Source: Stramenopiles sp. TOSAG23-2
Taxonomy: Eukaryota
Direction of reading: 5' to 3'
DNA length: 32,384 nucleotides
Assembly: GCA_900128395.1 (NCBI GenBank)
Contig: LT649363.1
Span: 1-32,384, forward strand
Shown: in pieces, positions 1-13,077 of the stretch
How the letters are laid out: each line of letters starts with the position of its first letter
How positions within the stretch are numbered: the first letter of the stretch is position 1
Made by a program: the position numbers and the translations under genes
Notes under the pieces: generated by a model
The model's input: the letters and a program-made list of their open reading frames with translations, nothing else
Database searches by the model: none
What the model was told of the DNA's origin: nothing

Positions 1-547
1 GAAGATACCTCTGTTGGCGCGACAAAAAATTGGCGGGGTATTACCTCCTCAGCAGACGGGACAAAGCTGGCAGCGACTGTTCAAGACGGCAACATATGGA
101 CCTCCAGCAACAGCGGTGCGACTTGGACGGTAGATACCTCCGTTGGTGCTACGAAAAATTGGCGGGGTATTACCTCCTCGGCAGACGGAACGAAGCTGGC
201 GGCGGTTGTGAATAATGGCAACATATGGACCTCCAGCAACAGCGGTGCGACCTGGACGGAAGATACCTCCGTTGGTGCGACGAAAGCTTGGTATGGTATC
301 ACCTCCTCGGCTAATGGGACGAAGCTGGCGGCAGCTGTGAGTTGGGGCAACATATGGACCTCCATTGAATGTCCTGCTGGTAACCGCCATACCCCTGGGC
401 TTTGTAAGCCATGGACTACGTGTTCTACAGCGGTGCGACCTGGACGGAAGATACCTCCGTTGGTGCGACTAAAGATTGGTGGGCTATTACCTCCTCGGCA
501 GATGGAACGAAGCTGGCGGCAGGTGCGTGGAATGGCAATATATGGAC
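1..547 (+). repeat. 129-bp coding tandem repeat (~4 copies)
   Basis: GWAGATACCTC unit starts at 1, 130, 259 and 447; the last spacing is 129+59. Confidence 0.95.
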
Positions 548-1079
548 ACTTGACACAACACCAACAACAGACACAAGTAGTTCCACAACCAACGACTTAG
601 AAATATGTGAGTTCGGATTTTTTAAAGATGAAACCGGTACGTGTGTACACGAAAGCACCAGTTTAGATAATTCTGACAATACATATGCCTATATAAATGA
701 TGAAAACTGGTATCATGAAGATTTATTAAAATATTATAATGCGTGGGACGAAGAAGAATTTAAAGATAACCCGCCAAATGTAGTGACCGATATAGCAGGT
801 GTACAAGCCTCATTTGAACAACAAATTGAAAATATAGAAAATAGCTATTTAGATAATACCCCAGATAGCCGATTTGTACAAATTAATCATGAATACGATG
901 GGATAGAAATGGATATTCTAGGAAATTATGATGATACTATGACAGAAGAAGAAAAACTGGCTGAACTGGAACGTTTGAAAAAGCTATATAAAGAAGACCT
1001 TGTAGAAGATGAATCGTTTAGGACGAATGGGAAAATTTATAGTTACGAACCATCATATGTTGAATTTGAGCGGTTGTGA
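1..1079 (+). pseudogene. BNR/Asp-box (beta-propeller) repeat protein with acidic C-terminus, 5' partial, frameshifted near 365-426
   Basis: Frame 1 from base 1 reads EDTSVGATKNWRGITSSADGTKLAATVQDGNIWTSSNSGATW in 43-aa units. After a 62-bp Cys-rich segment (ECPAG...CKPWTTCS) the repeat resumes in frame 3 and runs to TGA at 1077-1079. Confidence 0.75.
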
Positions 1080-1569
1080 AATATTAGACTAAAATATTTA
1101 ATAAATAATCCCGTTTTATTAGCAAATGTGAAGTTAAGGGAAAGTTATATAAACTTGTTGATATTAATACCCTGGACCCTGGAAATTCTTACCAATTATA
1201 TTGGTAAATAATAAAATAGAATAACAATAAGTATAGCGAGATAATAGGCCAGCATATTTAACAGGCGATTACTGTTAGGAATGCTTAGGTATAATGTAAA
1301 TAGTGGGACACAGCATTACGTATGCTCAAAAATAAAATCTTTAATCCAACTCCAACTCTAAAAGATAATAATTATTATTATTTTTGATGAACATAGATAA
1401 CCACCCGGAATATCGCACGCAAACGCACAAACAAGAACCGAAACAGATAACGAGCCGTATATTCAACAAAATATATTGGAAAGCACGAATAAAAAACACA
1501 TTTACAATCGCATATTGAAACAACATTTACTTTTCGCCAAACACCAAAACAAACTTTAAATTGACTACC

Positions 1570-2493
1570 ATGTCCAGCAGCAGCTCCCGACCACGAAAAA
1601 AAAGGAAAATTGAGCAGCCGAAAATTGACTGGAAGAAGTTGAAAAAAATTATCGGTGCGAAGATAGTAAAAAAACTACAATCTCCCAGTAAAACAGATAA
1701 TGGAAAATTAAACTTGAGTAAAAAAAATCTTACAGCAGACGATTGTAAGTTGCTGGCACCTGCTATTATCCATTATGGCAAAATTTTAAAAGAAAAAACA
1801 GAGGGTTCAGTGTCCGGCTGGTCCAATCTCAATTTATCGTTTAATAAAATTGGCGACGAAGGTTGTAAAAACTTGGTTGATATTTTGAAACACCACAAGG
1901 GAGGAAACAACCGCTTTTTTTTCCTAAACCTACGTAGCAACAACATTACCGCAGAAGGCTGTAAATACATAAATGTGTTTGCTGATTTGGACGCTAGCCA
2001 TACTGAAACCATATTTAACATCAGCGACAATAATATTGGTGACGAAGGTGTAAAAATGCTCTTAAGTGGAAGTTGCGAGGTTGAGAATACCGCTTTACAG
2101 TTTAACAATGTTGGTTTGACAAATAAAGGGTTGAAATATTTACTTGTTAATATTGACCAAAGCGAATACGGATACGCTCGTAAAATTGAAATGGCAAACA
2201 ATAATTTGACTGACAAATGTGAGGAAAATATGTTGGATTTTATAAAATGTTCAAATAGTTTGCCTATGAATATTTCTGGTAATAAATTTTCTACAAAAGT
2301 TCAAAGAAGATTTAAAGCCTGTTTCGGTGCTAAATTACGTTTCAGTGAAAGTGAAAGCACATTAAAAGATTTTAAATGTGATTACAAAAGAAAAATTACA
2401 AAAAAAGAAATGAAACTTTTTGAAAGCGACGACGAGGACGAAGAAAGCAGCGAAGAAGAGGAAAGTAGCGAGGAAGAAAGCAGTGAAGAATAG
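1570..2493 (+). CDS. RI-like leucine-rich repeat protein with N-terminal NLS-like patch and acidic tail
   Basis: LNLSFNKIGDEGC, LNLRSNNITAEGC, FNISDNNIGDEGV, LQFNNVGLTNKG; RPRKKRK at the N-terminus; EDEESSEEEESSEEESSEE tail; first ATG at 1570. Confidence 0.85.
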   Translation: MSSSSSRPRKKRKIEQPKIDWKKLKKIIGAKIVKKLQSPSKTDNGKLNLSKKNLTADDCKLLAPAIIHYGKILKEKTEGSVSGWSNLNLSFNKIGDEGCKNLVDILKHHKGGNNRFFFLNLRSNNITAEGCKYINVFADLDASHTETIFNISDNNIGDEGVKMLLSGSCEVENTALQFNNVGLTNKGLKYLLVNIDQSEYGYARKIEMANNNLTDKCEENMLDFIKCSNSLPMNISGNKFSTKVQRRFKACFGAKLRFSESESTLKDFKCDYKRKITKKEMKLFESDDEDEESSEEEESSEEESSEE

Positions 2494-2531: not shown

Positions 2532-4001
2532 TTATGAACCGCTAATAATTACATTACCATCTTTCATAGTCATCATTCTTTCACATTCCGCCCACAAAAA
2601 CAAGTCATATTTACCATTTTTCTGTAAAGTTCGTCCTCTAGTTTGTCGCCATACAACAGGATTATTGCTGTCAATCGCCGTTCCCATGCCTGGTTCATTT
2701 TCACTACCTTTACTTAGATTTATACCATAATAATGTCCCACGCCATTTAATTCATTGAATTGATAACCAAAAATAGTGTGATTGTTTCCAAAGTTCTGTG
2801 AAATATCAGCATTGTACAAAGTTGCTGGAGTGACACTTGTTTGACCTTCAAAACTACTCATTCCTACAGGAACATTATGGATTGCGCCTGCCTCACACTC
2901 AGATAATTCCTGCCAAATTCTAGAATCCATGTCAATTGGACTAGGATAAACAGGGTGATTGTTAATAGTAAGTTGGACGGTTTCGTCACTACTCATAGTT
3001 GCTTCACTTACAAAGTTTCCAGCAATATTATTTGCTGGAACTTGTGGAGAAGCAGCAAAATTAGGTTGAGGAGTGACTGCCGCAAATATTTTACGAACAA
3101 TTTGATTATTTAATCCCAAAACTTGGCTAGTTTCTTGTTGGGTTTTTTGACCAGCAGCAACTGTAATTGCTGGAAATGCGTTTGAAATTTTAACATTCAC
3201 ATTATCGGTATAAGTTAAACTAAGTCCTTTTGCCATTTCTGCTTGTAATTTTTCCATGACTGGCACCTCATCTGGTTGATCATCAAAATAAATTAAGTCA
3301 CAAACTAATTTCATTTTTTCTTCAACAATCTTGTTTCCAGCAACAAAATTAAATCCAGACAAAGTAGTTATACGATTACCAGCTCTATCTGGTGCGAAAT
3401 CTAGAACCACACTAAACTGACCTAACAAACCTAGTGGTAATTGTAATTGCGACATCATTGGGAACAAATCTGACAAGTAAATTCTAAATTCAGGTGTTGT
3501 TGCCGCTGTTGTACCTAGTTTAAAGGCACTATTTATTGCGAAATTACCTGTAGCAACTATATCTACACCATTTATATTTTTGTCTAAACTATATTGGCCT
3601 TGTACACCATTACTTCCGGTCTCAACCATGAAGTCTTGTATCCCACCCGTTCTAGTAGGCATCACCTGGCGTCTTTTAGATGGCACCCTGTACCATGATT
3701 TTAAACTGATATAACTATTTACATCACGGGTTTGAGCAATTACATTATTTTCATACATTAATGTAGCTGTTTCAATACAACCAGTTATTCCAGCAAATAA
3801 TGGAAGATTTCTTGAAGCATCCACTGCTGTTAAACTAATTGTAATGTAAGCATTATTGTCCAATATACCGCTTCTAGGTAGATTTAATCTACAAGTTTCA
3901 TCGGTAAATGATTGTGGTTCAACTACTCTAGTTTCAACATTTACAGACTGACCTAAATTATCCGGCTTTCCGCCAACTTTTAAAACACTAGCAATACTCA
4001 T
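2532..4001 (-). CDS. PLV major capsid protein (double jelly-roll), 489 aa
   Basis: N-terminal VETRVVEP..TCRLNLPRSGILD and LPLFAGITGCIETATL, central IYLSDLFPMM..LQLPL, KLVCDLIYFD and C-terminal LFLWAECERMMTMKDG resemble PLV MCP motifs; typical length. Confidence 0.85.
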   Translation of the reverse strand: MSIASVLKVGGKPDNLGQSVNVETRVVEPQSFTDETCRLNLPRSGILDNNAYITISLTAVDASRNLPLFAGITGCIETATLMYENNVIAQTRDVNSYISLKSWYRVPSKRRQVMPTRTGGIQDFMVETGSNGVQGQYSLDKNINGVDIVATGNFAINSAFKLGTTAATTPEFRIYLSDLFPMMSQLQLPLGLLGQFSVVLDFAPDRAGNRITTLSGFNFVAGNKIVEEKMKLVCDLIYFDDQPDEVPVMEKLQAEMAKGLSLTYTDNVNVKISNAFPAITVAAGQKTQQETSQVLGLNNQIVRKIFAAVTPQPNFAASPQVPANNIAGNFVSEATMSSDETVQLTINNHPVYPSPIDMDSRIWQELSECEAGAIHNVPVGMSSFEGQTSVTPATLYNADISQNFGNNHTIFGYQFNELNGVGHYYGINLSKGSENEPGMGTAIDSNNPVVWRQTRGRTLQKNGKYDLFLWAECERMMTMKDGNVIISGS

Positions 4002-4033
4002 TTGTTATACCGAAAGAAAATATTTTACTAAAG

Positions 4034-4064
4034 TTAAACTTTATATTTCTTGTATAAAGTTTAA
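4034..4064. terminator. Perfect 12-bp stem hairpin between the MCP2 remnant and the MCP
   Basis: TTAAACTTTATA (4034-4045), 7-nt loop, TATAAAGTTTAA (4053-4064). Terminator role is inferred. Confidence 0.45.
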
Positions 4065-4134
4065 TTTATGGGGATGGATGGGGGACTACAACTCATTTAC
4101 CTACGGCTTTTACTCTATAAAATACACAAATATT

Positions 4135-4284
4135 TTATTCTACAGTAGTTGCCGAACCATTGCCGCCCAGAATTAGGACACTTCTATGTAGCATATATGT
4201 ATAAATACTGTTAGGTGAACTACCATTTAATGTAGAGCGGATACGATGAGTAAATGGACGACCACGCATATTTGCTCCATATCT
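4135..4284 (-). pseudogene. C-terminal remnant of a second MCP paralog
   Basis: Hand translation: RYGANMRGRPFTHRIRSTLNGSSPNSIYTYMLHRSVLILGGNGSATTVE*, paralleling the last beta-strands of PLV MCPs. Overlaps the 3' end of the upstream ORF in another frame. Confidence 0.65.
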
Positions 4285-5495
4285 TCAAATATCTGCTCTG
4301 CTTCTAACTCAATAAAACAAGTTAAGGGCTGTAGCAATGGGCTAAATTCAGTTTCATTATTACCCAAAACTACATTCATACCGTTTGGGAGAGGTTGTGG
4401 ACCTTGATAATCGTTTCGTAACAAGATGTAGGGTTTATTTGAAAAACCTTCTCTTACATTAAATGATTTTATTTCTACTGGACCAGTTGAATTTGGGTAT
4501 TTTTCCGTCATGTTAAACAAGTTATTACCTCTGTAACGTGGAACATTATAAAATGGTGCTGGGATGCCAGTTGTATTAATATGGTCAGCGTTATATAGTC
4601 CTAACCCAACATTATTATTAACATTGTCTATTCCAAATCGTATGGGGGTCCCTTGTGGACTGGAACTAGGTGCTGCTGCTGGTGAAAAGAGATATGGTAG
4701 TGTATTTACTATTGGAACAGCATTTGTTAATTCACAAACAATTCTATTATTAGAAATATCAAAAGATTTAACAGTAGATAAAATGCTCCATTCTATATCA
4801 CCTCCATCATCAATATTACTGTAAAGAACATTCATTCCAGTTAAAGCTTTAAAACTAGATGTATAATTAGAATAATCAGTATTCAGTGGTAAAAGCATGC
4901 CTGATGGGTCTGAGTCACCGGCAGTAGATAAATGAATTTTTTTTAAATTCTGTAAAAGCCCTGAATCAGTTACAAATACTCCTCCTTCATCTTCTAGACC
5001 AAAAACTACAAAGCATTTAGATATATCAGCCGATAAAACATCTATTTGACTATTAATTTCAGGAGGATTAGCACCAATTCCGTTGTCAAAATCAGTTGAA
5101 TAACCAATTGGATTATAAGTAGCATCATTTATAGGTATTTTACGGTTTGCTGCTTGACTACCATAACCAGGTGCTGGAAGTTGTACAGGAAGTGTATTTG
5201 TCTTACTACCATTGTTATTATTTAAATAAAATCCAACTTCTAAAACTACTTTATTATCCACGTATGGTTTCTTCACGCCATTTATCTGAGGATTTGTTCT
5301 CGTAAATTCTAAAACATCAGGACTTCCAATACCTTCGGATTCTATAGCCACACTTTGAACTGATACTTGGTCCCCGGGCTTCAAATTAAATGGTGTAATA
5401 TCACTAGTATAAATAGAATTATACTCTTCGTTTTGGGATAAAATAGTAGAATTTGCCCTATTACACTCAATTAAATACGTTTGTTGTAAATTCAT
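4227..5495 (-). CDS. PLV minor-capsid/structural protein, probably C-terminally truncated
   Basis: N-terminal YLIECNRANS...FNLKPGDQVSVQSVAIE..G.G..DVLEF resembles the start of PLV minor-capsid-like proteins; beta-rich N/G/P composition; the last ~18 aa are an out-of-frame reading of the MCP2 remnant. Confidence 0.7.
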   Translation of the reverse strand: MNLQQTYLIECNRANSTILSQNEEYNSIYTSDITPFNLKPGDQVSVQSVAIESEGIGSPDVLEFTRTNPQINGVKKPYVDNKVVLEVGFYLNNNNGSKTNTLPVQLPAPGYGSQAANRKIPINDATYNPIGYSTDFDNGIGANPPEINSQIDVLSADISKCFVVFGLEDEGGVFVTDSGLLQNLKKIHLSTAGDSDPSGMLLPLNTDYSNYTSSFKALTGMNVLYSNIDDGGDIEWSILSTVKSFDISNNRIVCELTNAVPIVNTLPYLFSPAAAPSSSPQGTPIRFGIDNVNNNVGLGLYNADHINTTGIPAPFYNVPRYRGNNLFNMTEKYPNSTGPVEIKSFNVREGFSNKPYILLRNDYQGPQPLPNGMNVVLGNNETEFSPLLQPLTCFIELEAEQIFEDMEQICVVVHLLIVSALH

Positions 5496-5537
5496 AATAT
5501 ATAATACAAATAAATTAAAATTAGTATAAAAACATGT

Positions 5538-7781
5538 TTAACTAGGTTGTTTTACACCAGGAAGCGGAACGTATGTATAATCAACTACATCTCCAATGTG
5601 TTCACTGTCGCTGTTGTATATTTTATTCTTACATCCTTCTACTACATAATGTCCCTCTTCAATAAAATAATACCCTGTTTTCTTAAAATTTTTTGATTTT
5701 TCGCACTCTATTATGTCGTATGGCTTCTTCCACATTTTTATTTTTCTTATTTTGTCCTTTTGTTTTATTTTTGCTTCTTCTTTTAACAATTTTGTCATGT
5801 CAACATGTTCTTTCTTGTTGTCTTCATCTTCAATTTCTTGTTCTAATTTATCTATTTCTTCCTGTATTTCATCCTGTTTTTCACTATTCCACTCGTAGTC
5901 ATAATCTGAATCTTCATTCTGCTCAGATTCGTTATATAAATCTTGTATTTCTTGCTTTAATTGACAAATTTTTTCTAGTTTTATCTGCTTTTGTTCTTCT
6001 TTTTTTTGTAATTTTAATTGTTTTTCTTTTTCTATTTTCTCTTTTTTTTTTTCTAACTTCATGTAAGCCACTTCTATTTCATACGTGTCTTTTACATTCG
6101 GTTCTGCTAGATAAGGCGTTTCTTCTTCTTCTTCTTCTACTTCTTCTTCGCTTTTATTCTCGTTTTCGCTAGAAGCACTTGTATTAGACAATTCATCATC
6201 TTTTTGAGTTTTTAATTTCACTTCTTTTTTTTCAACAACATCATATACTAATTCACCGTCAATAATTTCGCCTTTTCGTTTTCCGCGTCTGCTGTAAATA
6301 ATATCGTTGTAAATAGTTTTAAAATCTCTCAACATTTGTTCGTCTTTAAAATTTTCTAGCCAATCGTTTGTTTCTACATTAAATGGACGCATTTTATACC
6401 TAATTTTTATGACATTAGATTTTGTTTGTGGAACTAATGCGATAAAAATAAAGTTTGGATGATAAAAATTTGGTCCGTCACGTCCTACATCAACGTCACA
6501 CCCAACTATTTCATCGTTTTCGTTGTAAATGTATTTACCACCATAATTTTTGTATATTGCTTCACGGAATTTGTTGCCACGTGTAAAACTAGTTTTTGGA
6601 GCTGGTTGTGGAACTAATCGTTGTAAGCATGCGTGCTTTACATTATATGGTTGCCGACCATTTGGTTCATCTACTTCTGTTCGTGCTCTTGTGTGTCTAG
6701 CTTCATGTGGATACGCTATATCATATATGTTAAACAAATTGCGGTATTCTTCTCGTTCAACTTCTAGCATTTCAAACTCATCATTATCAAAAGAACTAAA
6801 TTTTGCTTGTTTTGGGTCAGGAATATAAACGCCATCTTTCATTTCACCTTTTCTTCTGCCATTTTTATCGTAAATCACGTCACTGTCTTCAAGCTTATAA
6901 TATAACACCCTGCTCGTGTTGTAAAATCGTTTTTTTTTACAATTATACATACGGATATCCCATTTTAGCTTCTTTCGTAGTTCTTTTTTTGTCATAAACT
7001 TGTAAAATCGTTTATATCTTGTTAAGTGATATCCAACGACTTCACCGCTTAAATCACAAATTTTAAAACCCCTTTCGTCTCTGTTTCCCACAAACAAATT
7101 TTGGCACTTTTCATTAATTCGCACGTATTTTGTTTTTATATTGTGAACCACAATCTTCCGAATATTACAATATTTGCTGACATTAACGTTTTTTAAGTCA
7201 ATCGGTGGTTTTCGTTTTGACATTAAATCAATTTTATATACTTCCAATGAGTCTTTATACGTTTTAATATCTTGTTTCAACAAGTTCAATTTTTCTTCGT
7301 AATCGCTAGGTAATTTTTTCATGCCTGTGCTTTTCTTTTTTTCCTTCAGCATTGCTCGCCATTCGTTTGCTTTCTTTTGGTGCTTTAATGTTTTGTTGTG
7401 TGCTTTTAAATTTGAACGACTGGTTACTTTCTTATCACAAGAATAACAATAAAACGTTGGTGTGTAAATTGACATACTATTTTCGTCGCAAAATTGCTCA
7501 AGACGTAGCATCGCTTTTTCGTTTTTCCAAAAGCATCGTGTTATTTTATCGTTGGATAACTTTTTCCAACCCTTCTCATATTTGCTAGGCTCTCCCATTT
7601 TAGACGGTTCAATATACGCTTCATATTCCATGATATTTGAAGCATCGTAGTCCGTAAAGTGACAGTGAAGAAATGCATTACGCTTTAGTTCCAAATATTC
7701 GGCGGTGACTCGATCTGATGCATGTTCTGTTGATAAATTTTTCTCAGTAATTTTCCCTGACAATGTTGCTAATGATGCCAT
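5538..7781 (-). CDS. C2H2 zinc-finger protein with repeated IYxxxGxxxG motifs and an acidic coiled coil (giant-virus-like)
   Basis: FYCYSCDKKVTSRSNLKAHNKTLKH; repeats VIYDKNGRRKGEMKDG, IIYSRRGKRKGEIIDG, YIYNENDEIVG, KIYNSDSEHIGD; 747-aa intronless ORF. Confidence 0.8.
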   Translation of the reverse strand: MASLATLSGKITEKNLSTEHASDRVTAEYLELKRNAFLHCHFTDYDASNIMEYEAYIEPSKMGEPSKYEKGWKKLSNDKITRCFWKNEKAMLRLEQFCDENSMSIYTPTFYCYSCDKKVTSRSNLKAHNKTLKHQKKANEWRAMLKEKKKSTGMKKLPSDYEEKLNLLKQDIKTYKDSLEVYKIDLMSKRKPPIDLKNVNVSKYCNIRKIVVHNIKTKYVRINEKCQNLFVGNRDERGFKICDLSGEVVGYHLTRYKRFYKFMTKKELRKKLKWDIRMYNCKKKRFYNTSRVLYYKLEDSDVIYDKNGRRKGEMKDGVYIPDPKQAKFSSFDNDEFEMLEVEREEYRNLFNIYDIAYPHEARHTRARTEVDEPNGRQPYNVKHACLQRLVPQPAPKTSFTRGNKFREAIYKNYGGKYIYNENDEIVGCDVDVGRDGPNFYHPNFIFIALVPQTKSNVIKIRYKMRPFNVETNDWLENFKDEQMLRDFKTIYNDIIYSRRGKRKGEIIDGELVYDVVEKKEVKLKTQKDDELSNTSASSENENKSEEEVEEEEEETPYLAEPNVKDTYEIEVAYMKLEKKKEKIEKEKQLKLQKKEEQKQIKLEKICQLKQEIQDLYNESEQNEDSDYDYEWNSEKQDEIQEEIDKLEQEIEDEDNKKEHVDMTKLLKEEAKIKQKDKIRKIKMWKKPYDIIECEKSKNFKKTGYYFIEEGHYVVEGCKNKIYNSDSEHIGDVVDYTYVPLPGVKQPS

Positions 7782-8112: not shown

Positions 8113-8589
8113 ATGAAAAAATTAACTCCAGAAGTTGTTGAACGTCTATTAGCATTGGCTAATATATTAACACCAGAAGTAGTAGAAAAACTACTACAAG
8201 ATAGAGTAGCAGAAAAGCCTACAAAAAAATCCTATATGGCAAAACTAGCAAAAAAAACAATTTGTTATAAGAAGTTTGTAGATGAAATCAAGTTACCAGA
8301 TAATCCTATGGAATCATTATATGATGAAAAACAAGTTGATTTTTATTCGTATGTCATATTAAATTATATAAAAAAATATAAATATATTCCCATCTTTTGT
8401 AGTGCTATAAAAAACAATAAAATGTATAAAATATATAATGGAACAACATGGGAAGAAAAAGAAGATTTAAACGATATTATTGATAAAATATGTAAACTAC
8501 TTTTAGTTAAAGGATTTCAACAATGGGAAAAAAAGAATCCTGATTTCCAAAAAAATCAAAAAAAAAACGATAAATTTAAGGATATATAG
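8113..8589 (+). CDS. Protein resembling the C-terminal domain of giant-virus MIGE-type proteins
   Basis: IPIFCSAIKNNKMYKIYNGTTWEE...QQWEKKNPDF parallels the RPIHCSD..RE.LY.KD..WEK...W...NPD motif; duplicated LTPEVVExLL at the N-terminus. Confidence 0.55.
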   Translation: MKKLTPEVVERLLALANILTPEVVEKLLQDRVAEKPTKKSYMAKLAKKTICYKKFVDEIKLPDNPMESLYDEKQVDFYSYVILNYIKKYKYIPIFCSAIKNNKMYKIYNGTTWEEKEDLNDIIDKICKLLLVKGFQQWEKKNPDFQKNQKKNDKFKDI

Positions 8590-8861
8590 TGTAAAATATT
8601 CTCAGGTATCACATAAAAAATAATGAGGAAAACTTACAAATATACAAATAATTCTTGTAAAAAATGTTCCAACAATTGCGCAAATTATTTTTAAAAAAAG
8701 TCCTGATTTCCAAAAAAATCAAAAAAAAAACGATAAATTTAAGGATATATAGTGTAAAATATTCTCAGGTATCACATAAAAAATAATGAGGAAAACTTAC
8801 AAATATACAAATAATTCTTGTAAAAAATGTTCCAACAATTGCGCAAATTATTTTTAAAAAA
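8538..8861 (+). repeat. 163-bp period near-perfect tandem duplication
   Basis: TCCTGATTTCC... starts at 8538 and 8701; copies differ essentially only in homopolymer lengths. Confidence 0.95.
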
Positions 8862-8970
8862 CTTGTTTCATGCCAATAATTTTCATAATTTATTCTAATA
8901 ATTGACACATTAAAACAAGTTATTTTTTATTACAAACTTAAATATTTTTACCTTTGAAACTAGTTATTTT

Positions 8971-9525
8971 AAAACATCAATTTTGGTGATTTTTGATAGT
9001 TTTTATAGTTATACTTATGTGTATTCTCCCAGCCTATCTATGAGAATTAATATAGGATTATCATTGTGTTTGTTGGCTTTCTAAGATTTTGTTGTTATAC
9101 TTATGTGTAATGTCCCTAGCCTATATATGAGAAATAACAGGGGAATAACATGGGTAATCATTTTGTATCATTGTGTTTGTTGGCTTTCTAAGATTTTGTT
9201 GTTATACTTATGTGTAATGTCCCCAGTCTATATATGAGAAATAACAGGGGTATAGCATGGGTAATCATCTTGTTGTAACTAGATAATTTCCGCAAACTAT
9301 TATAAAATAAATCATTTAATATATAATATTTAACTAGTTGTATAAAATATATTTTTCTTTCTAATTACGATATTTCAAAACATCAATTTTGGTGATTTTT
9401 GATAGTTTTTATAAGTATATATATAGGTATTCTTAGATTCCTATGTATAATATGTAATATACTTGTGTGTATTCTTTTCACGCCTATATATGAGAATTAA
9501 TAGGGGAATAGCATGGGGAAATCAT
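8971..9525 (+). repeat. Complex direct repeats (107-bp tandem pair, partial copies and a 37-bp repeat)
   Basis: TATCATTGTGTTTGTTGGC at 9059 and 9166; partial units at ~9008 and ~9458; AAAACATCAATTTTGGTGATTTTTGATAG at 8971 and 9377, with its core also at 8006. Confidence 0.9.
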
Positions 9526-9716
9526 TATTTTTATCTAGTTTTATGTAGTCAAACAACTTAATAAGTATTTGAATACAACTAGATTTCATGTAAAAATTAA
9601 TGTTTTTTATAAAAATAACAACTTGTTTTAAACAAGATTGTTGGAAACGTCATTTTTTTTAAATAATTTTTTTATTAAGACCTTAACGGGATTTTTACAG
9701 AAGATTGTTGGGGGGA

Positions 9717-9954
9717 ATATATATATGGCCCATTTTTCTAAGGATTTATCATTTAATTTTTTTCCAGTCAAAATTTCTGTTAAAAATATAAACGCGTGAG
9801 CAGAGAATAGTTTTAAACTCTATAGACACGATTAGATTAAATTAGAAATCCTTAGAAAAATGGGCCATATATATATATCCGGATATCCTAGACACGATTA
9901 GATTAAATTAGAAATCCTTAGAAAAATGGGCCATATATATATATCCGGATATCC
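9717..9954. repeat. 31-bp perfect inverted repeat plus 66-bp tandem duplication
   Basis: 9717-9747 is the exact reverse complement of 9846-9876 and 9912-9942; 9823-9888 equals 9889-9954. Confidence 0.95.
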
Positions 9955-10317: not shown

Positions 10318-10485
10318 TAGTACAAATTTAGTATACTATAGATATATATTTATATAGGATAATATAAAAAATCGGATATTCTAGATATTTTCATCCAATT
10401 AACATTGGTCATTTTTGGATTTTATGAATTAATTATCTCCTTAGATCTACCTATCAAATATCTATAGTATACTAAATCTGTACTA
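10318..10485. mobile_element. Small MITE-like element with 28-bp inverted repeats
   Basis: TAGTACAAATTTAGTATACTATAGATAT (10318-10345) vs ATATCTATAGTATACTAAATCTGTACTA (10458-10485), 27/28 complementary. Confidence 0.55.
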
Positions 10486-10644
10486 ATTTGACCCCGCCTG
10501 TTTTGAGGAGAGTTTCATCCGTCTTATTTACAAGGATAGCCTGGATAGGTGCATAGGACAAAATATAAAAAATAAAAAAATTTCACAAATGGAAATTTGG
10601 AAAATGGTAGGCTGGTAGGCCCAGTAGGTGCGTAGGCCAGTAGG

Positions 10645-11840: not shown

Positions 11841-11850
11841 TTTTTGGTGT

Positions 11851-12199
11851 ATTTATAATGATGGTTAAAATCTAAGTTATAATATTTTTACACTTCTCGT
11901 GTTAAAGTAATATGCTCAATACTCAATCGCAAGAATAATATGTTATCCTACTGTAGTAAAGCTCTAATGCACCTCTGCAAACAAGCACAAGTAGGTTTCT
12001 ATCCTTCCGTGCGCAATCGTTGAACGCGCTTAATATATATATATTTATAAATGATGGTTAAAATCTATAAGTTATAAAGTAATTTTACACTTCTCATGTT
12101 AAGTAATATGCTCAATACTCAATCGCAAGAATAATATACTAATACTCTACAAGCACAAGTAGGTTTCTATCCTTCCAACATGTTCGAACGTTGAACGCG
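11851..12199 (+). repeat. Diverged tandem duplication (~180/155 bp)
   Basis: ATGATGGTTAAAATCTA, GTAATATGCTCAATACTCAATCGCAAGAATAATAT and ACAAGCACAAGTAGGTTTCTATCCTTCC each occur twice in the same order. Confidence 0.9.
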
Positions 12200-13077
12200 T
12201 TGGACGTCGGGTTCACTCGATAGCGGTGAGGCTGTCAAAGTGAAAGATCCTGTTGTGAACAACAACCGGTAACTATCCGGATAAAGATCTTGAAGTGCAC
12301 GGTTGTGGCAAAAAGCCACGGTTTTGATCACTTTAGCTTGTAGATCTCTACATGTTTCATTGACCCATTGTGCTTTAAGCCAGTCCGATTTTCTTTTCGT
12401 AGCCGAATAAAATATATCTATTTTTATAATCTTCTATTTTAGCTATGTATCAATATGATATTTTGATATATATAAATATATAACATGATATTAATATGTA
12501 TCATATGCATTTAAGCTCCGGGACCAGCTAATCTAGGATCGTTTACTTTCCTTAATGGGGGGCCTATGGCACAATTACTCAAGTAATAATTTAAGCGCCT
12601 TTGGCAAATTGCTTTAATTCCTTTCACTATCCCATTCATGTTGGTACCAACTCTGAATTTTTCTCTGGAAAATGTTTCTAGCTCTACTAACGAAGGCGGC
12701 GAAGCTCTGAAAACACTTGTTGTTCCACGTGTTATTGCTGGCTTTTTTACCAAATGGTGTTCCATATATTTATTTACAACACGAACTATTTTGGCATGTT
12801 GTTGTGACAACGATAATGCCGAAGAAGCCGAAGACGATGATGGTGACAGGATATCGTGTTTATTGTTCTCGTTGTTGTTCTTGTCATGATTATTATTATT
12901 TACATAAATATGATTTTCACTAAATAAAATGTCTTTTAACTCCCCGTTTAGCAATTGATGTTTTAAATATATTTCTAATGATTCCCCTATTTGTTGATTA
13001 TTCGCATACGAACATTGTAAGGACGTTCCTATTATTATTATCGTTGCGAAACAGTTCCAATAAAGTAGTTTCGTCAT
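12167..13077 (-). CDS. Putative secreted protein of unknown function, probably two exons (13077-~12547 and ~12433-12167)
   Basis: Signal-peptide-like N-terminus; AT-rich gap at ~12434-12510; an ATG-less 88-codon open frame (..YSATKRKSDWLKAQWVNETCRDLQ..) ends at TAG 12167. Splice sites uncertain. Confidence 0.5.

Follow-up and report, generated by a model that had tools for sequence, protein, structure and literature searches.

Roughly the first 10 kb of the stretch of DNA analysed here (the window, 32,384 nucleotides from Stramenopiles sp. TOSAG23-2; contig C739 in an assembly of 32.8 Mb that is broken up into 9,146 contigs) probably represent an integrated polinton-like virus (PLV) of the Trimcap group, or group X, that has lost its middle. 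On the minus strand, at 4280..4281, a penton-like gene and a major capsid (MCP) gene, MCP-B, are joined out of frame.

The tail of a second major capsid gene

The minus-strand frame at 4138-4284 encodes 49 residues and is closed by a stop codon at 4135-4137. It shares 58 bases with the 3' end of an ORF at 4227-5495 (P0002, 422 aa), which is read in another frame, and 133 bases separate its stop from the ORF at 2532-4001 (P0001, 489 aa). An earlier note on this DNA had quoted such a 49-aa tail beginning inside the 3' end of a minor-capsid-like ORF in another frame, and the frame reads as quoted. Only residues 3-49 (4278-4138) are capsid-derived, the first two residues being read across the seam; the MCP-B remnant itself occupies 4135..4280 on the minus strand and comprises codons 395-441 and the stop, with 4280-4279 probably the last two bases of codon 394.

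BLASTP aligned residues 3-49 with the last 47 residues of P0008, a 441-aa protein from public assemblies that was retrieved by a search with the 439-aa protein of sibling contig C7271, and 46/47 residues were identical (E 1e-30). Two further members of the P0008 cluster, P0011 and P0016, are identical to the tail at 47/47; 10 of the 15 members listed, out of 17, are 441 aa long. The profile search proposed in the earlier note did find MCP similarity: against 98 distant homologues, the four closest of the 102 rows being excluded, the peptide scored 40.8 bits, and 1,000 shuffles of it scored at most 6.5 bits. Within the same assembly the tail resembles the C-terminus of the 439-aa ORF on C7271 (62%, E 3e-13) and that of a frame on C3879 (48%), each of which directly precedes a homologue of P0001.

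A structure model of P0008 built with 102 sequences (pLDDT 91, pTM 0.90) gave Foldseek matches to iridovirus and EhV capsid chains (E 4e-13) and aligned with a PBCV-1 capsid chain over 362 residues (Z 26.5, rmsd 3.1), and the top 13 rows of its structural matches were all viral capsid or scaffold entries. On the model, P0008, the full-length orthologue of the tail, is a double jelly-roll MCP with two tandem barrels, and the tail is predicted to form the last strands of the second barrel. That the tail comes from another MCP gene, as had been claimed, is borne out by its agreement at 46-47 of 47 residues with 441-aa proteins that model as double jelly rolls; judged by sequence comparison it is the C-terminus of the middle gene of a three-MCP cassette. 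The parallel that had been drawn between the tail and the end of the window's own intact MCP, P0001, was not detectable (BLASTP E 2.1). The last 49 residues of P0001 scored -1.6 bits against the MCP-B profile, and hhalign gave tail and P0001 a probability of 1%, or 15% with profiles on both sides. Pfam families gave no match for the tail, P0001, P0002, P0008 or the long penton-like proteins, and a sequence search of solved structures with the MCP-B profile found none.

The truncated penton-like gene

The ORF upstream of the tail (4227..5495, minus strand) consists of codons 1-405 of a gene for a minor capsid (penton)-like protein of ~1,285 aa followed by 17 residues that are MCP-B DNA read in the wrong frame. 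Residues 1-405 of P0002 are 82% identical to P0189 and 79% identical to the 1,285-aa P0190, both of which run on for hundreds of unrelated residues past the position of Asp405. The complete members of the cluster have 1,283-1,285 aa, and two sibling frames in the same assembly have >1,060 and ~1,240 aa. In 16 viral loci with a penton-like frame, 15 of the frames are 1,327-2,476 aa long (two run off the stretch examined); the remaining one is broken at 382 aa, on a contig in which MCP-B is also split. The reading of this ORF as a minor-capsid-like gene whose remainder has been removed is upheld by homologues that continue for ~880 unrelated residues.

The model of a sibling penton-like protein (first 1,160 residues) was poor (pLDDT 31). 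Its top seven matches were virus capsid entries, including the mavirus penton (Z 6.9), and the other six chains are presumably pentons as well; N- and C-terminal strands were aligned together at Z 6.8-8.0, which is near the level of common folds. A Foldseek comparison of this low-confidence model with viral models gave nothing usable. The gene is likely, from the model, to be a penton with a very large insertion, and if so the cut takes away half of the jelly roll, with the 422-aa ORF likely to lack its C-terminal half.

The minor-capsid-like gene of these Trimcap viruses is very long, at 1,283-2,476 aa (L034-L059; P0190-P0192; C1557, C1298), and its jelly roll is apparently split between the N-terminus and a point ~1,000 residues later. 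A further penton-like gene, broken and in pieces, was seen at C2276:5412-6459 (L021). A literature search found no paper on DUF5901, the ESM Atlas lead for the penton-like protein.

Position of the seam and its presence in other assemblies

Homology to the penton-like gene stops at Asp405 (4283-4281) and homology to MCP-B begins at Gly395 (4278); since the bases between them, 4280-4279, are compatible with the end of the preceding Asn codon of MCP-B, the seam is placed at 4281|4280. The breakpoint previously suggested near 4280 can thus be given exactly to the base.

The window was compared with the contigs of four runs, of which X1 is possibly the assembly's own source, X2 comes from a different sample under the same study and organism label, and X3 and X4 are environmental, X4 being a viral metagenome. 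RNA runs shared only 5-7% of the sequence words. One contig of X1 covers 2603-5800 and spans the seam with 0 differences. A 726-base contig of X2, over 4089-4814, spans it with one difference and no gap, extending 192 and 534 bases on its two sides. Where the earlier note had asked for read support for the junction, separately assembled contigs of X1 and X2 bridge it. Both flanks are identified and the seam lies at the same position in two libraries. No seam-bridging contig was among the pieces listed for X3 and X4. The matched part of one X4 contig is placed, from distances to its end, at 4281-4384, starting at the seam, which is a hint and no more.

Three MCP genes and their order in relatives

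The window's intact MCP gene, MCP-C (2532..4001, minus strand), is an open frame behind the MCP-B stop, and its product P0001 resembles viral clusters at 0.98 in its ESM Atlas features, and in some of these clusters 15-24% of the members carry Capsid_N/Capsid_NCLDV; on comparison with its relatives it is classed as the third MCP. Orthologues of MCP-C are present in 24/25 viral loci, these loci being the ones found with the MCP-B alignment, and all three MCP families are present in 23/25, the other two being cut by contig ends. When compared with the viral loci, the tail and P0008 both hit the middle gene and P0001 hits the third, with no overlap among the A, B and C sets. The families are strongly diverged: hhalign gave A-B a probability of 95% at 20% identity, A-C 9% and B-C 0.2-15%. 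Three MCP-like genes also stand in tandem on sibling contig C7271, where, just as in the window, the homologue of the tail immediately precedes that of MCP-C. The window has one whole MCP and a 47-codon tail, with no match to MCP-A. Three distinct MCPs per genome, by which Trimcap is recognised, are found on C7271 and in 23/25 viral loci and not in the window copy, which is accordingly classed, by gene content, as a remnant of a three-MCP (Trimcap/group X) PLV and not as a complete member.

The order of these genes varies among relatives. In all 24 distant viral loci that have both genes (24/24) the penton gene lies downstream of MCP-B, directly after MCP-C in 19 and directly after MCP-B in 5, and it lies upstream in none. 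In L044, L045 and L049-L051 the third MCP gene has been relocated behind the penton gene and inverted, so that the order of the three-MCP cassette is not fixed. A close relative, 97% identical to P0008 over 243 residues, came from a scan of one metagenome, on a 4-kb contig that ends inside MCP-B and carries, in order, an ATPase-like gene, a 310-aa acidic gene, MCP-A, a 101-aa gene and MCP-B. The first four of these have no match in the window and the tail alone matches; the ATPase-like genes of siblings, too, have no match in the window. The label ATPase-like was given in siblings from position and a Walker-A-like motif seen by eye, and neither Pfam nor PHROGs gave a match.

Within the assembly the end of C1557, which carries the penton gene, a D5 helicase and two more genes, overlaps the start of C4178 in one gene at 92% on the same strand, and the joined order is penton, D5 helicase, ATPase-like, MCP-A and MCP-B, all on one strand. 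These contigs stem from two different copies, whose lineage is more distant (MCP-B 28% to P0008, penton ~31% to P0190). None of four penton-bearing contigs of the assembly has a match to MCP-C. Scans of viral contigs with single proteins gave no close relative; P0013 (MCP-B) and P0192 (penton-like) are encoded on contigs of ~26 kb. A relic of the 3' end of MCP-C with downstream bases, 83-87% identical to the window and with two stops, lies at C8582:1114-1330 (L002), where it adjoins an unrelated gene.

Origin of the seam

The explanation that fits best, and that we consider likely, is one deletion in an integrated Trimcap PLV. Such a deletion, by end-joining or template switch, would have joined codon 405 of the penton-like gene out of frame to the last 47 codons of MCP-B, removing ~880 penton codons, the ATPase-like gene, the acidic-protein gene, MCP-A, the small gene and 394 codons of MCP-B. 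The loss would amount to at least ~7.2 kb (at least 7,153 bases with the penton remainder), and to more if replication genes lay between. We infer the ancestral gene order, the single event, the size of the deletion and its mechanism. The deletion proposed in the earlier note is supported: both flanks are cut at 4281|4280, and the window lacks the ATPase-like gene and MCP-A; that one clean event produced the seam is no more than likely, since in distant relatives the genes stand in a different order. A simple deletion implies that the penton gene preceded MCP-B in the ancestor, and the order of C1557/C4178 fits. Identity is unequal across the seam, at ~80% to the best relatives on the penton side and 98-100% in the tail, and this could reflect different rates or two parents.

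The inequality also speaks for a more complex origin of the seam, either a backward join, with later losses, in a genome whose genes stood as MCP-A, B, C, penton, or recombination of two different Trimcap copies. An origin of this kind is unlikely, if still to be reckoned with. It agrees with the position of the penton gene downstream of MCP-B in the 24 distant viral loci and with the several Trimcap copies of the assembly, and a second chimeric junction near 426/427 indicates that the element rearranges. It would, however, need two further breaks, since the 747-aa gene precedes the penton-like gene and the leucine-rich-repeat (LRR) gene follows MCP-C, and in the sibling copies of the assembly the penton gene is likewise uncoupled from MCP-C.

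Far less probable is that the seam is a chimera of amplification or assembly. Such chimeras are described as frequent where endogenous viruses are assembled from short reads of protists (PMC10120064), this assembly is fragmented into its 9,146 contigs, and both bridging runs are small, come from one study and were compared as contigs rather than raw reads. Against this, the same seam was assembled separately in X1 and X2, from different samples, and the missing pieces of this copy were not found elsewhere in the assembly at high identity.

A programmed ribosomal frameshift fusing the N-terminal part of the penton and the MCP tail into a functional protein is very improbable. The two frames do overlap, from 4284 to 4227, but 4220-4310 contains neither an XXXYYYZ heptamer nor any base repeated more than three times in a row, the intact homologues of both genes are separate full-length proteins, the tail holds only the last strands of a second jelly roll, and no bridging X3 or X4 contig was among those listed; the earlier judgement that such a fusion was less likely than a deletion holds. 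If the upstream gene naturally ended in this peptide and a single indel had severed the two, it would be clear why the peptide starts where the upstream homology ends. This reading is refuted by orthologues of the upstream gene, which continue with ~880 other residues, and by the peptide itself, which is without a match in P0004 and belongs with another gene family (46/47 to P0008).

Comparison with known elements

PLVs with several MCPs have been described repeatedly. Triplication of the MCP was noted by Yutin 2015 (PMC4642659), and Bellas and Sommaruga 2021 (PMC7805220) write of a group with 'all 39 members ... encoding three distinct MCP genes'. Groups X1-X3 were described in Piedade 2024 (PMC11502894), and the published Trimcap and group X profiles are A1-A3, B1-B4 and X1-X3. 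Bellas 2023 (PMC10120064) reports Trimcap MCPs in unclassified stramenopiles. More recent preprints describe three-MCP PLVs as common in a coastal series (bioRxiv 10.64898/2026.05.28.728513), Trimcap as endogenous in marine stramenopiles with a capsomer modelled as a heterotrimer (bioRxiv 10.64898/2026.06.19.733378) and Trimcap as monophyletic (bioRxiv 2026.10.13.758929).

With Trimcap or group X, as these sources portray it, the remnant and its relatives share three highly divergent MCP families, minor capsid and ATPase-like genes and an occurrence in marine samples, and both MCP genes of the window and its penton-like gene have orthologues on Trimcap viral contigs (three-MCP in 23/25 loci). 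The window copy differs in having one whole MCP, 47 codons of a second and nothing of the remaining one, only a third of the penton gene and no ATPase, and it differs from the 24 distant loci in that its penton gene lies upstream of the MCP genes. With the endogenous PLVs of protists described in PMC10120064 it appears to share a position adjoining host genes, together with probable terminal inverted repeats; that source warns that many degraded copies are artefacts, whereas here there is a gene-to-gene seam in two libraries. A literature search, judged on result headings, gave no report of an internally deleted Trimcap element, which makes this copy a new example and not a new kind. Transposons and proviruses give rise to internally deleted, non-autonomous derivatives. 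Like these, the window element apparently keeps both ends and has lost core genes; unlike these, it shows no sign of spread in the assembly.

Function and meaning

The tail, which has no start of its own, would be a non-coding scar. Going by the ORFs, the element has no ATPase-like gene, lacks one and nine-tenths MCP genes and has no recognisable replicase or integrase, and the remnant would be unable to build a capsid alone. The element is most likely a non-functional fossil inherited with the chromosome, because the tail lacks a start, the penton lacks its closing strands and core genes are missing. There is a slight chance that the remnant is a defective-interfering element, or a single subunit kept by the host that unbalances capsid assembly in Trimcap viruses that come in or are reactivated; this reading draws on the retention of both ends and one intact MCP and on the heterotrimeric capsomer proposed, from modelling only, in bioRxiv 10.64898/2026.06.19.733378.

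The remnant links to a protist genome a Trimcap virus whose MCP has near-identical relatives in public marine assemblies, which offers a clue to the host of an abundant group for which the literature consulted records no cultured host-virus pair. The seam probably documents, to the base, genuine decay in an endogenous PLV and not an assembly artefact. It also carries a warning for annotation: the 422-aa ORF resembles a minor capsid gene of normal size and the element a PLV with one MCP, and both impressions are wrong. No new mechanism is involved unless expression of the surviving MCP, and selection on it, come to light; the element is a case of ordinary decay within a known virus group.

The element, its neighbours and its ends

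Directly upstream of the penton-like gene lies a 747-aa gene (5538..7781, minus strand) with a C2H2 zinc finger Pfam match below the cut-off (E 0.001). It has a single match in the assembly and none in the 25 viral loci, and it is probably part of the element. The LRR gene (1570..2493, plus strand; Pfam LRR_6, E 7e-13) converges on MCP-C and is probably cargo, since it is located between the presumed ends of the element. At the start of the window (1..1079, plus strand) is a gene for a host-type repeat protein with 129-nt repeats, apparently carried inside the element, which is broken and chimeric near 426/427: positions 160-426 are 96% identical to the host-like locus C2945 and positions 615-1082 are 84% identical to C631. 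The 96% identity of one part suggests a recent capture of the repeat gene. The family has 43-residue repeats (C8717, C2945, C631, C2617, C858), and the junction near 426/427 is out of frame. Beyond ~12 kb the same contig carries eukaryote-type, host-like genes, named by eye from the ORF list.

The other end of the element is marked by a probable right terminal inverted repeat and terminus at 8747..9954, with repeat arrays, 41-nt inverted arms and an AT-run end. An inverted copy of 8747-9113, 95% identical, stands at the start of C8717, the other end of which corresponds to window 1-109 at 99%, and C1462 begins with 55 bases of the terminus followed by a host-like gene. If C1462, C8717 and the window are parts of one element, it would be ~12 kb long with both ends, the left end lying on contigs other than the window; the joining is tentative, as the overlap falls in a tandem repeat common to host-like genes. 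At this size the element would be about half as long as the longest related viral contigs (23-29 kb). Within the assembly the terminal repeat was found only on the window contig and C8717, with the outer terminus on C1462 as well, and there seems to be a single copy of the element.

Several smaller repeats were seen in and around these sequences. In the terminus, at 9717-9954, the 41-nt inverted arms surround 78 bases and are accompanied by a 66-nt tandem duplication and the AT-run end; a related palindromic end is carried by C2898:6457-6745 (see also C1462:1-55). An 88-base motif is common, at 74%, to window 1399-1486 and C8717:1079-1166; it stands before both the LRR gene and the repeat gene and is perhaps a promoter of the cargo genes. 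Window 8530-8855 is a 163-base tandem duplication (99%) spanning the 3' end of a 158-aa ORF and the beginning of the terminal repeat. Two short repeats that recur many times in the assembly lie at 10318-10537 and ~11850-12420, and the former has 28-nt inverted ends and is MITE-like.
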